Position numbers and translations under genes: made by a program
Sequence record: NC_054903.1
Strand: one strand, 5' to 3'
From: Enterobacteria phage GiZh
DNA length: 64,000 bases
Notes under the pieces: model-generated
The model's input: only the letters and a program-made list of their open reading frames with translations
The model's database searches: none
What the model was told of the DNA's origin: nothing
Shown: positions 8,501 through 17,661 of the stretch, piece after piece
Layout: every line of letters begins with the position of its first letter
Numbering within the stretch: position 1 is the stretch's first letter

Positions 8501-8818
8501 TTCTTTAAATCTAATCAATTTATTCATAGACTTTGAAACTTCTGCACGAACCTCACGTAAGTTTTTAAGCTGTTCAAGACGCTGCTCATAGTAAGCAATT
8601 TCATCTTCTTCGAGACAGTCCTGTGAATCTTCTTTAAGATAACGTGCATAGTCCTGAAAAGCTTTACGGACTACTTCCTGAAAGTCATCAAGACTTTGAA
8701 TTTTCTTAGGAGCGGCAGATACACGACGAGGTGCAGTATAATACTCATAACCAAACCCTGCACTTAATTGAGCCATTAGTATTTTTCCTCTGGTTGGAAC
8801 ACTGCACGACAAGCCCAC
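8498..8818 (-). CDS. hypothetical protein
   Basis: 106 aa ORF upstream of regB. Confidence 0.5.
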
Positions 8819-9078
8819 ATACTGGCTTCTTTGAGTTTCGTTTTAGCAATAGTTAACTGATCGAGGCTTTCAGCGTAATTCTTCGCGAGTTCATCATCTT
8901 CACAGCTATCAAATGCTTCCCAAAATTCATCGTATAAAGCATCAAAGATAAGTCCTAAACGAACTTCAGCGTCTTTAATAGCATTTACTTTACCGATTTT
9001 TTCGTCGGTATGCGGCTTATAACCTTTAATATCTTCAATCATATTTGACTTCCTCACCAGTGCATAAATCATATTCAA
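8776..9078 (-). CDS. hypothetical protein at the T4 vs.4 position (possible Acb2-like)
   Basis: 100 aa ORF; assignment by position only. Confidence 0.45.
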
Positions 9079-9256
9079 CTAAACGAATAGGTTCATGAAT
9101 GCCATATCCTTGAACAGAAATTTCTGTCGTAGGATAAATTCCATCAATATCACCCATATTCCAGGCTTCATTAAATTGCTGTTCGCCTGAATTACTAAAC
9201 CACTCGGCGAAAGCATTTAGCACATCTTTAGAACCTTCAATAATTATCTTTGCCAT
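9035..9256 (-). CDS. hypothetical protein
   Basis: 73 aa ORF in track. Confidence 0.45.
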   Translation of the reverse strand: MAKIIIEGSKDVLNAFAEWFSNSGEQQFNEAWNMGDIDGIYPTTEISVQGYGIHEPIRLVEYDLCTGEEVKYD

Positions 9257-9618
9257 TACAAACTCTCGGTGAAGGTACGAGCGATAACGTCGCGCTGCTG
9301 TTCCGGAGTCAGAGAATTAAAGCGAACTGCATAACCTGATACACGGATGGTCAGCTGCGGATATTTTTCCGGATGCTTAACTGCATCTTCCAGAGTTTCA
9401 CGACGCAGAACGTTAACGTTCAGGTGTTGACCACCTTCAATTTTAACTGTAGGCTGTGGTTCAATTTCAATTTCACGGGCATGCAAACCGTAGAAAATTT
9501 CTGGGTCTACAAAAGAGTCCTCTTTAAAGGTTTTAGAGACAATAATTCGTGCTTGAATACCATCTTCAAAATAAATAGTACCTTTATGTGTGCCTTCAAG
9601 AATTTGATATGCTTTCAT
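9256..9618 (-). CDS. autonomous glycyl-radical cofactor (GrcA/YfiD-like)
   Basis: 120 aa; C-terminal [31 protein letters not shown] is the glycyl-radical signature. Confidence 0.8.
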
Positions 9619-9624
9619 ATAACC

Positions 9625-10005
9625 TCAATTAGAAAATAAATTTATCCAAGATTGTTCTTTAATTAAAAATGGCTCAGAATCATATGCCATTAAACTTTGG
9701 GTAATTAGTCCTTTAAAAGGCCCATCAATAAATTCCATGGTAAAATATGGAATTTTATTCATTAATCTTGCATTAGGAGCAGTGCACAAAACTCTGCATC
9801 CTTTGAATACGCCTTTTTGTAATTTGTATTGCTTGGGATAAAATTCGCTTAAAATGTTATTATTTGCCAAAATTTCAAAATGATTTACCAATTTATTTTT
9901 AATAGTTTTTGGCGAAAAATAGAGATATTCGAAAAGCTGTGTGTCTGTCATCATTGCATTCCGATTACGAAAAACTGTGGACGAGTAATACCACCAATGC
10001 AACAT
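9625..10005 (-). CDS. hypothetical protein
   Basis: 126 aa ORF in track. Confidence 0.45.
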   Translation of the reverse strand: MLHWWYYSSTVFRNRNAMMTDTQLFEYLYFSPKTIKNKLVNHFEILANNNILSEFYPKQYKLQKGVFKGCRVLCTAPNARLMNKIPYFTMEFIDGPFKGLITQSLMAYDSEPFLIKEQSWINLFSN

Positions 10006-10490
10006 TTACTATTACAGCAGTAGTGTACAGTGTCAATATGGACGCTATAAATCTTATCCATATCAGGAGATTTGACAGGCTCATCAATTATATACAAAAT
10101 TCGCGAAAGCGATAAACCTCTGAACTTGCTTCCTTTATTACCGATAAAACTACGGACAGAATCGGTAAATAAACGGAATCGAATATCATCGCTAGAATAA
10201 CGAGAAAATTCTTTTTTAATGTGGCCTGCAGAAATTTTAGCGTAAGCTGAAGTATTAGAAAGAACAATAACTGTTCCACCATCATACAGCCAATTAGCGG
10301 CAAAGTTAGTTACTGCAGTTGATTTACCGGATTGACGTCCACCATCTATACGAAGTGTGCAGTACTGTTTAAGTAATTCTTCAAATGGTGGGATATAATC
10401 GTTTTTACAAATTTCTTCTACTCTAGCATCAGAATGGTGTGTAAAAGCATTCATCAGGGATAGATAAGGACCAGTTAAAAATGTTCTCAT
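9951..10490 (-). CDS. P-loop ATPase (start placed at MRTFLTGPYL)
   Basis: Walker A GGRQSGKST and Walker B-like LYIIDEP; GAGAG upstream of ATG at 10490. Confidence 0.5.
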   Translation of the reverse strand: MRTFLTGPYLSLMNAFTHHSDARVEEICKNDYIPPFEELLKQYCTLRIDGGRQSGKSTAVTNFAANWLYDGGTVIVLSNTSAYAKISAGHIKKEFSRYSSDDIRFRLFTDSVRSFIGNKGSKFRGLSLSRILYIIDEPVKSPDMDKIYSVHIDTVHYCCNSKCCIGGITRPQFFVIGMQ

Positions 10491-10631
10491 TTTATTCTCT
10501 CTAAATTTGGGCCATTCCGTGGCGCATGAATTGTCCATTTCTGTATTTACCCATTACCGCACTCAGGCTCGACCTTATCACAGGTTGGCGGGAATCCCTC
10601 ACAGAATCATGAGGTCCAGCTTGTTCCCATA

Positions 10632-11105
10632 TTATTTGAACGATTTAACGTACTGAATAGAACCTTTACTATTCACAAAGGCAATTTTACCATTTTTATT
10701 ATACATGGTAGCAGTACGTTGATAACCATAAGTTTGTTTACCAGATTGATAACCAACTAATGCGAAATTATCTTCGCCCATTTTATTCTGTTTAGCGCGA
10801 ATGCGTTCATGACCATGTGCCATAAGAACCTTAGCATCACCAGTTGCAATGGATCGACGAGTTTTTTCATCTTCAACTGTATTAACAAAGTCGTCAAATG
10901 AATCAAATTTAGCATGAGATTTATTATACAATTTTCCATCTACTGCATAATTATATCCCTGTACATCCATCTCAACTTCTGTACCATCATCCAATACAGC
11001 AGTGATTTTTTGACCTTTTTTAAATTTCAAAAGATCAGTAAAAGATTCAGCAATAATTTGAGAATTAATAGCTGCTTCAGTGATAAATTCTTGATATGTT
11101 TTCAT
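10632..11105 (-). CDS. internal-protein-like (capsid-targeting leader)
   Basis: 157 aa; N-terminus MKTYQEFITE then AAIN resembles the T4 IP leader with a gp21-type cleavage site. Confidence 0.7.
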   Translation of the reverse strand: MKTYQEFITEAAINSQIIAESFTDLLKFKKGQKITAVLDDGTEVEMDVQGYNYAVDGKLYNKSHAKFDSFDDFVNTVEDEKTRRSIATGDAKVLMAHGHERIRAKQNKMGEDNFALVGYQSGKQTYGYQRTATMYNKNGKIAFVNSKGSIQYVKSFK

Positions 11106-16830: not shown

Positions 16831-16906
16831 TGGTCGAGGCAGTAGGGATCGAACCTACGACCTAGGACTTAGAAGGTCCTTGCTCTTCCTTCTGAGCTAT
16901 GCCTCG
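16831..16906 (-). tRNA. tRNA-Arg (anticodon UCU)
   Basis: Hand-folded cloverleaf: acceptor CGAGGCA/TGCCTCG, loop CTTCTAA, T-arm GTAGGTTCGATCCCTAC, encoded CCA. Confidence 0.75.
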
Positions 16907-16910
16907 GATT

Positions 16911-16985
16911 TGGCGGACGTGATAGGATTCGAACCTATAACCAATCGCTTAACAGGCGATCGCTCTGCCATTGAGCTACACATCC
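16911..16985 (-). tRNA. tRNA-Asn (anticodon GUU)
   Basis: Acceptor GGATGTG/CACGTCC (one G-U), anticodon loop CTGTTAA, T-loop TTCGAAT, CCA. Confidence 0.7.
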
Positions 16986-16989
16986 AAAT

Positions 16990-17076
16990 TGGTGGGGAGT
17001 GATGGAGTCGAACCACCCGAGTCGCAATGACAATGGATTTACAGTCCACACCGCTACCTCTACGGGATAACTCCCC
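16990..17076 (-). tRNA. tRNA-Tyr (anticodon GUA), long variable arm
   Basis: Acceptor GGGGAGT/ACTCCCC, anticodon loop CTGTAAA, 87 nt, CCA. Confidence 0.7.
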
Positions 17077-17088
17077 TAATTCATAATT

Positions 17089-17163
17089 TGGTGGCCCTGG
17101 GTGGAATTGAACCACCATCTGGCGATTATGAGTCGCTTGCTTGAACCTTCCAGCTACAGGGCC
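17089..17163 (-). tRNA. tRNA with CAU anticodon (Ile2-like)
   Basis: Acceptor GGCCCTG/CAGGGCC; anticodon arm GCGACTCATAATCGC resembles tRNA-Ile(LAU); CCA. Confidence 0.7.
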
Positions 17164-17164
17164 T

Positions 17165-17240
17165 TGGTGCTGATTGACGGAATCGAACCGCCGACCTTCT
17201 CATTACAAGTGAGTTGCTCTACCTACTGAGCTAAATCAGC
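17165..17240 (-). tRNA. tRNA-Thr (anticodon UGU)
   Basis: Acceptor GCTGATT/AATCAGC, anticodon loop CTTGTAA, T-loop TTCGATT, CCA. Confidence 0.75.
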
Positions 17241-17245
17241 AAAAC

Positions 17246-17335
17246 TGGCGGAGGCGATAGGATTTGAACCTATGAGTCGCCGGAGCGACTGCCGGTTTTC
17301 AAGACCGGTGCATTAAACCACTCTGCCACGCCTCC
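17246..17335 (-). tRNA. tRNA-Ser (anticodon UGA), long variable arm
   Basis: Acceptor GGAGGCG/CGCCTCC, anticodon stem-loop CCGGT-CTTGAAA-ACCGG, 90 nt, CCA. Confidence 0.75.
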
Positions 17336-17337
17336 AG

Positions 17338-17411
17338 TCTCCATACAAGGATTTGAACCTTGGACCTCCTGATCCCAAATCAGGCGCTCTACCAAACTGA
17401 GCTACACGGAG
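17338..17411 (-). tRNA. tRNA-Pro (anticodon UGG)
   Basis: Anticodon stem-loop CCTGA-TTTGGGA-TCAGG, T-arm CAAGGTTCAAATCCTTG; CCA not encoded. Confidence 0.7.
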
Positions 17412-17421
17412 TAAATTAAAT

Positions 17422-17495
<74 letters not shown>

Positions 17496-17500
17496 AAATT

Positions 17501-17587
17501 TGGTGCGAGAAGTGGGACTCGAACCCACAAGGAAATCATTCCGCAGCATTTTAAGTGCTGTACCTTTACCAATTTGACCATTCTCGC
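17501..17587 (-). tRNA. tRNA-Leu (anticodon UAA), long variable arm
   Basis: Acceptor GCGAGAA/TTCTCGC, anticodon stem-loop CAGCA-CTTAAAA-TGCTG, 87 nt, CCA. Confidence 0.75.
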
Positions 17588-17588
17588 G

Positions 17589-17661
17589 CTGGGAATAAAG
17601 GACTCGAACCTTTGCATCCTGGAATCAAAATCCAGTGCCTTACCAACTTGGCTAATTCCCA
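17589..17661 (-). tRNA. tRNA-Gln (anticodon UUG)
   Basis: Acceptor TGGGAAT/ATTCCCA, anticodon stem-loop CTGGA-TTTTGAT-TCCAG; 1 nt from tRNA-Leu. Confidence 0.7.

Follow-up and report, generated by a model that had tools for sequence, protein, structure and literature searches.

Oxygen-cleaved pyruvate formate-lyase (PFL) can be restored by small stand-alone proteins. Wagner et al. (2001, Knappe group; BBRC 285:456) are reported to have found that Escherichia coli YfiD and phage T4 Y06I are two such spare parts of ~14 kDa (PMC8683613). PFL-AE puts a radical on YfiD or Y06I, which complexes cleaved PFL (Andorfer et al. 2021, PMC8683613), and these two proteins are the only validated spare parts, with evidence for PFL repair alone (PMC8683613). 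Residues 61-127 of YfiD reproduce the fold of PFL residues 693-759, while residues 1-60 are dispensable for catalysis but give an approximately fourfold gain in radical installation and in binding to cleaved PFL (PMC8683613). Radical transfer runs from G102 of GrcA to C419 of PflB (PMC12338860, also the source of the G102 and G734 assignments). The phage gene, vs.6, was found conserved in all T4-like genomes compared by Nolan et al. (2006), who noted its Gly_radical match and already speculated on a role in nucleotide metabolism (PMC1524935). Both the gene (T4 vs.6/Y06I) and its biochemistry, published in 2001, are therefore known, and the analysis below concerns its counterpart in Enterobacteria phage GiZh (NC_054903.1), within a window of 64,000 nt.

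Results

A GrcA-type protein in the regB-denV region

The vs.6 gene of GiZh is an ATG-to-TAA open reading frame of 120 codons plus stop on the minus strand (9256-9618), lying between the stop of vs.7 and the start of vs.5 and not part of a large enzyme. It is the orthologue of T4 vs.6/Y06I (NP_049730; NC_000866 63557-63919), which has the same length and the same neighbours and is identical at 354 of 363 nt and 119 of 120 residues; the sole amino-acid change among the nine nucleotide differences is at residue 73, a histidine in T4 and, in GiZh, an arginine that is also the E. coli GrcA residue.

Family searches consistently placed the protein with GrcA. Vs.6 matched Pfam Gly_radical (PF01228; E=2.8e-18), NCBIfam TIGR04365 (GrcA) over residues 20-120 (E=3.7e-45), and the E. 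coli YfiD/GrcA structure 6OWR over residues 22-120 (E=8.6e-42), and PHROG phrog_1209, labeled "unknown function" in PHROGs, covered its full length (1.2e-62). Residues 61-120 match E. coli GrcA 68-127 at every position, and identity to PflB 697-759 is ~80% over 63 residues (E=5e-26); in a Foldseek search with the AF2 model of Vs.6, YfiD and PFL ranked at the top. Across an alignment of 37 phage and bacterial homologues, the glycine of the RVSGY motif and 40 further positions were invariant. The corresponding codon in GiZh is GGT at 9334-9336 on the minus strand (acc on the plus strand) and encodes Gly95, the predicted radical-bearing residue, equivalent to GrcA G102 and PflB G734. The first-pass annotation had proposed a GrcA/YfiD-like autonomous glycyl-radical cofactor from a C-terminal peptide, Vs.6 residues 90-120, that it took to be essentially the GrcA glycyl-radical domain. 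The match to this family is far beyond chance, and alignment with E. coli GrcA bears the proposal out: the whole glycyl-radical domain aligned, so that the objection of a motif without a full domain falls, and the similarity continues into the N-terminal half.

Relative to its closest relatives, Vs.6 combines a conserved radical domain with a divergent N-terminus. E. coli GrcA (YfiD; 6OWR, TIGR04365) is likewise a stand-alone protein of ~14 kDa with the RVSGY glycine, the same C-terminal 60 residues, and an N-terminal half that is homologous and predicted to have its beta-strands in the same order. However, Vs.6 is seven residues shorter, its N-terminal half has strongly diverged and is without similarity at the DNA level, and its gene lies in an AT-rich phage operon rather than in the ung-grcA locus. 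The C-terminal domain of PflB (693-759; PDB 2PFL, 1H16), also among the top Foldseek matches, is the PFL piece that Vs.6 mimics and would replace, yet PflB is a 759-residue enzyme, whereas Vs.6 lacks the catalytic barrel and Cys418/Cys419. The short GrcA2 and GrcA3 proteins (NF008341, NF038360; 78-80 aa) share the glycyl-radical domain, scoring 93-107 bits over Vs.6 residues 60-120, but lack the N-terminal half found in Vs.6 and GrcA. Finally, the C-terminus of the anaerobic ribonucleotide reductase NrdD (T4 Gly580) has a glycyl radical in the same R-x-x-G-Y context and the same oxygen sensitivity; unlike Vs.6, it carries a cysteine-rich element before the glycine and has its own activase, NrdG, with no detectable sequence similarity between the two. 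Vs.6 thus displays the features of a GrcA-type protein: its chain stands alone, the PFL-type radical domain is complete, the radical glycine is conserved, and the N-terminal half is homologous to that of GrcA. Its TIGR04365 score (153.3 bits) falls under the equivalog cut-off of 170 because the N-terminal half has diverged, and RefSeq nonetheless names the T4 and phiD1 proteins GrcA. Judging from these sequence comparisons, Vs.6 is best called a phage subfamily (PHROG 1209) of the GrcA family. Very probably, this orthologue of T4 vs.6/Y06I is an autonomous glycyl-radical cofactor that restores oxygen-cleaved host PFL; by analogy with the T4 protein one residue apart, GiZh Vs.6 would be activated by PflA and rescue the cleaved enzyme.

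The neighbours of vs.6 (regB, vs.3, vs.4, vs.5, vs.7, vs.8, and denV) are arranged as in T4 and phiD1, which agrees with its initial placement in the early region. A Shine-Dalgarno-like GAGG (9623-9626, minus strand) precedes the ATG of vs.6 by 4 nt and overlaps the vs.7 stop codon, and the stop codon of vs.6 shares bases with the start of vs.5 (TAATG). Since a promoter and terminator scan around vs.6 gave no excess over shuffled expectation, the gene probably shares a transcript with its upstream neighbours vs.8 and vs.7 and its downstream neighbours vs.5, vs.4, and vs.3.

Several other genes of the window were also noted. The gene after vs.6 (9035-9256, minus strand) has 73 codons, as in phiD1 (222 bp), and no Pfam match; it overlaps the start of vs.4, whereas T4 vs.5 is 177 bp long and leaves a gap before vs.4. 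The vs.4 homologue itself (8776-9042, minus strand), two genes downstream of vs.6, matches Pfam Acb2_Tad1_hairpin (9.4e-20), the family of anti-CBASS/anti-Thoeris cyclic-nucleotide sponges. On the other side, the vs.8 homologue (9951-10538, minus strand) has a Walker-A-like GGRQSGKST and a sub-threshold match to AAA_14, and its actual start codon is probably further downstream than the first ATG (the gene is 540 bp in phiD1). T4 has no gene between vs.8 and denV, but GiZh carries a 157-aa open reading frame there (10632-11105, minus strand) that matches DUF7412 over its full length (5.7e-96) and bears the annotation "internal virion protein" in phiD1. A cluster of ten tRNA genes (Arg, Asn, Tyr, Met, Thr, Ser, Pro, Gly, Leu, and Gln) is found at 16831-17661 on the minus strand.

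A diverged but homologous N-terminal half

The 5' half of vs.6 (9441-9618, minus strand; gene nt 1-178, i.e., codons 1-59 and part of codon 60) encodes a diverged GrcA N-terminal domain and is phage-like in composition, with a GC content of 34% and a GC3 of 0.20. It has no DNA similarity to E. coli grcA (65 of 178 nt identical in an ungapped comparison, about chance level). Nevertheless, in the 37-sequence alignment, Q5, R24, K29, and D34 and their spacing are common to phage and bacterial proteins, and the dN/dS of this half among phages is 0.13-0.2. AF2 predicts a small beta domain of four to five strands for the N-terminal halves of both Vs.6 (pLDDT 87-89) and E. coli GrcA (80-89 over the two proteins), with the same strand order. 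This prediction is unlike the picture from an NMR study, which describes YfiD residues 1-60 as disordered.

Two other views of this half were considered and dropped. A chimera with an unrelated phage N-terminus is at odds with the full-length search and the alignment, both of which reveal homology to the bacterial GrcA N-terminal half; a search with the 60 N-terminal residues of Vs.6 alone retrieved six near-identical fragments only and was uninformative. A folded phage N-terminus opposed to a disordered host one was likewise abandoned, because AF2 also folds this half of E. coli GrcA confidently into that beta domain and no phage-specific difference in folding can therefore be claimed. KOW-like Foldseek matches were weak (E ~0.2) and not significant.

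Phages often encode mimics that hijack host complexes, and Vs.6 could in principle act as a decoy or modulator, competing with host GrcA or intact PFL for PflA or blocking cleaved PFL and so redirecting host pyruvate metabolism: the half that is far from host GrcA is the one that in YfiD governs binding to cleaved PFL and activation efficiency. We give this only a slim chance, since Y06I was reported to restore rather than block PFL activity (PMC8683613), and since the radical glycine and all PFL-contacting residues of Vs.6 are intact and strictly conserved, with dN=0 in the 3' tract.

An E. coli-like DNA tract in the 3' half

The 3' half of the gene appears to have a different DNA-level history from the 5' half. 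When vs.6 was compared with 5,426 complete E. coli genomes, only nt 179-363 matched, namely to grcA at 96.8%. This segment (9256-9440, minus strand) encodes the glycyl-radical domain, residues 61-120, which docks into PFL, and has a GC content of 48% and a GC3 of 0.43. In an end-anchored comparison with E. coli grcA, 179 of 185 nt and 54 of 60 codons were identical, and the core of the tract (9272-9440; gene nt 179-347) contained a single mismatch. The switch in identity at gene nt 179 is sharp (179/185 vs. 65/178; Fisher p=9e-39). Tract dS relative to E. coli was 0.15 for GiZh, with dN=0, and 0.07 for T4, against reference dS values of 0.36 between E. coli and Citrobacter amalonaticus and ~1.0 between E. 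coli and Salmonella. Conservation of the protein can be ruled out as the cause of the tract, since Enterobacterales whose 61-residue sequence is identical or almost identical, the best non-Escherichia grcA included, reach at most 166/185.

This host identity is confined to close relatives of T4. Six T4-group relatives from IMG/VR matched E. coli grcA at 178-182 of 185 positions, one lineage among them diverging by ~10% in the 5' half, while other T4-like genera matched at 149-160/185, with dS of 1.2-2.0. Against 80 bacterial grcA genes, those of Jiaodavirus, Karamvirus, Slopekvirus, Pseudotevenvirus, T5-like phages, and Aeromonas phages reached 128-160/185 at most, and phages of the Pasteurellaceae type also lacked a host-identical tract when compared with 80 enterobacterial and Pasteurellaceae grcA genes. 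From this pattern, we infer that the tract arose by host-to-phage gene conversion restricted to the T4 group. An old phage GrcA lineage would have had its 3' half overwritten by E. coli grcA through homologous recombination, so that the docking domain would be an exact host copy while the 5' half would be the old phage-specific version of GrcA. The tract starts at the expected onset of DNA homology between the two genes, a few codons into the structured docking domain. The searchable literature yielded no report of this DNA-level tract, although it may have been noticed earlier.

At its other end, the tract stops near the stop codon, where most phages have GAGAGT..TAA and E. coli has GAAAGCCTGTAA. 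The differences between GiZh vs.6 and E. coli grcA cluster in the last 17 nt of the gene (9256-9272, minus strand; TTCACCGAGAGTTTGTAA vs. TTTACTGAAAGCCTGTAA), and several phage states in this segment equal those of distant T4-like genera. The GAGAG closely precedes the ATG of vs.5, which shares bases with the vs.6 stop, and may have been retained as the vs.5 ribosome-binding site. In T4, the last 17 nt differ slightly from those of GiZh, suggesting that its E. coli-like tract ends elsewhere, and tract ends vary slightly among close relatives in general. This variation hints at more than one conversion event, yet a single ancestral event is possible: tract distances are similar between phages (1-8 differences) and between phages and E. 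coli (3-7), numbers too small to separate single from recurrent conversion.

Distribution across phages

At the DNA level, a megablast search with vs.6 retrieved 755 phage records, mostly Tequatrovirus, with Yersinia phage phiD1 as the best match (99.2%); the best matches were annotated as autonomous glycyl radical cofactor or pyruvate formate-lyase. At the protein level, tblastn retrieved 1,587 phage records, which included T4-like phages of Klebsiella, Enterobacter, Citrobacter, Cronobacter, and Aeromonas, T5-like Demerecviridae, and Eneladusvirus jumbo phages.

The near-pure E. coli DNA of the 3' half could suggest that vs.6 is a functionless passenger, a fragment of grcA left by an accidental recombination with the host. 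The conservation data effectively refute this reading, to which we assign a practically negligible probability. An intact, full-length open reading frame is conserved in these 1,587 records, across Straboviridae, Demerecviridae, and jumbo phages, and most phage homologues are without an E. coli-like tract. In addition, the 5' half has a dN/dS of 0.13-0.2 and the 3' half has dN=0, and the 2006 comparison of T4-like genomes already counted vs.6 with the ORFs conserved in every one of them (PMC1524935).

Two groups of IMG/VR contigs stood apart from these phage homologues. "Viral" contigs with a full-length bacterial PflB (760 aa) or a Yersinia-like GrcA of bacterial type (L159-L169, L119) are probably prophage flanks or host contamination rather than phages carrying a spare part. 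Contigs of 130-150 kb (L109-L114, L121) encode GrcA homologues with a longer N-terminus (MKAIQIIDDFSNKRDVHYGDLSGSIWLIE...) that form a distinct phage subgroup; their 3' DNA is nearest to Haemophilus/Pasteurellaceae grcA (150-154/185), which suggests Pasteurellaceae phages carrying the same spare part.

Relationship to the anaerobic ribonucleotide reductase

The first-pass annotation had further suggested that the phage carries a repair module for anaerobic dNTP synthesis, acting on its own NrdD. Such a direct spare part would replace the C-terminal piece of NrdD lost at Gly580 and could be activated by NrdG. NrdD is indeed a glycyl-radical enzyme, with its radical at Gly580 in T4, and oxygen is reported to cleave it at this glycine. 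Homologues of vs.6 also lie in or beside nrdD-nrdG in Aeromonas phages (PX29, L138, L170) and in Eneladusvirus jumbo phages, and spare parts for other glycyl-radical enzymes are conceivable (PMC8683613). The sequences nevertheless argue against direct repair. BLASTP of Vs.6 against the last 149 residues of T4 NrdD found nothing (E=20), so that this part of the suggestion did not survive alignment with the NrdD C-terminus. In these 149 residues, the radical glycine lies in RRTCGYLG, with RTCGYLG following a four-cysteine cluster (CFTCGS...CSICGE), whereas Vs.6 has the PFL-type GGQHLNVNV..., contains no cysteines at all, and lacks both the NrdD-type RxCGY and the preceding cluster. Residues 61-120 are instead those of host GrcA and ~80% those of PflB, homologues inside nrd clusters are also PFL-type in sequence, and PFL is the sole demonstrated target (PMC8683613). 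Direct repair of NrdD by Vs.6 is thus very improbable, and what is left of the suggestion is a possible indirect link through formate.

Genomic context provides some support for such a link, in a minority of lineages. In Aeromonas phage PX29, the genes run nrdD-nrdG-vs.6-nrdC-nrdH, and vs.6 shares 23 nt with nrdG; in jumbo phage fHe-Yen9-04 they run nrdD-x-vs.6-x-x-nrdG. Across IMG/VR, a homologue was found within 5 kb of nrdD or nrdG at 5 of 80 loci (three jumbo and two Aeromonas-type phages). Elsewhere the genes are apart: none of nrdD, nrdG, nrdC, and nrdH was found in the 64,000-nt window of GiZh, T4 nrdD/nrdG are 17 kb from vs.6, and in T5-like and Biquartavirus phages (L089, L172) the vs.6 homologue lies among tRNA genes rather than nrd genes, so that the synteny argument holds for a minority of lineages only. 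NrdD itself is encoded in 2,925 phage records and was present in all spot-checked lineages with Vs.6 (PKO111, T5-like SCF, fHe-Yen9-04, and PX29).

Formate would connect the two enzymes. It is the reductant of the class III ribonucleotide reductases characterized so far, for which the E. coli enzyme is cited, and a formate-binding site has been proposed in T4 NrdD (PMC4493059). Since PFL makes formate, formate reduces class III enzymes, and vs.6 is syntenic with nrd genes in other phages, the link between Vs.6 and NrdD may be indirect. That Vs.6 serves NrdD by way of a working host PFL is plausible, and it is the most economical reading.

Discussion

By the mechanism reported for Y06I and E. 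coli YfiD/GrcA, the restoration of host PFL by Vs.6 would proceed in a few steps. Oxygen would cleave PFL at its radical glycine, G734, and Vs.6 would bind the cleaved enzyme, with residues 61-120 replacing the lost C-terminus of PFL. The host activase PflA would install a new radical on G95 of Vs.6. During infection under low or fluctuating oxygen, this repair might keep host fermentation running, and the formate supply thus kept up could serve as the reductant for the phage class III ribonucleotide reductase NrdD. No in vivo phenotype of a vs.6 mutant was found in the searchable literature, and the benefit of the gene to the phage is thus presumed.

We tentatively put forward a more specific role for this gene, which we regard as possible rather than probable. 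The value of Vs.6 may lie in supplying NrdD with formate through the upkeep of PFL when oxygen fluctuates, as an auxiliary metabolic gene coupled to nrdD/nrdG, and, in the T4 group, with a docking domain that has been matched to the host by conversion with grcA, possibly repeatedly. Such a coupled role would account for the position of vs.6 within the nrd cluster of Aeromonas and jumbo phages.

As a textbook-adjacent phage auxiliary metabolic gene, vs.6 in itself adds nothing new, and the host-identical tract and the synteny with nrd clusters are modest additions to a known gene. The E. coli-identical tract points to T-even phages still being able to swap short stretches of homologous DNA with the host chromosome even though they degrade it, and the limits of the tract coincide with those of DNA homology and of the structured docking domain. 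If true, conversion with grcA would represent a rare DNA-level transfer from host to T-even phage. The recurrent placement of vs.6 homologues at nrdD-nrdG, together with formate as the reductant of NrdD, would offer a concrete, testable reason for so many large enterobacterial phages to keep a PFL repair part.
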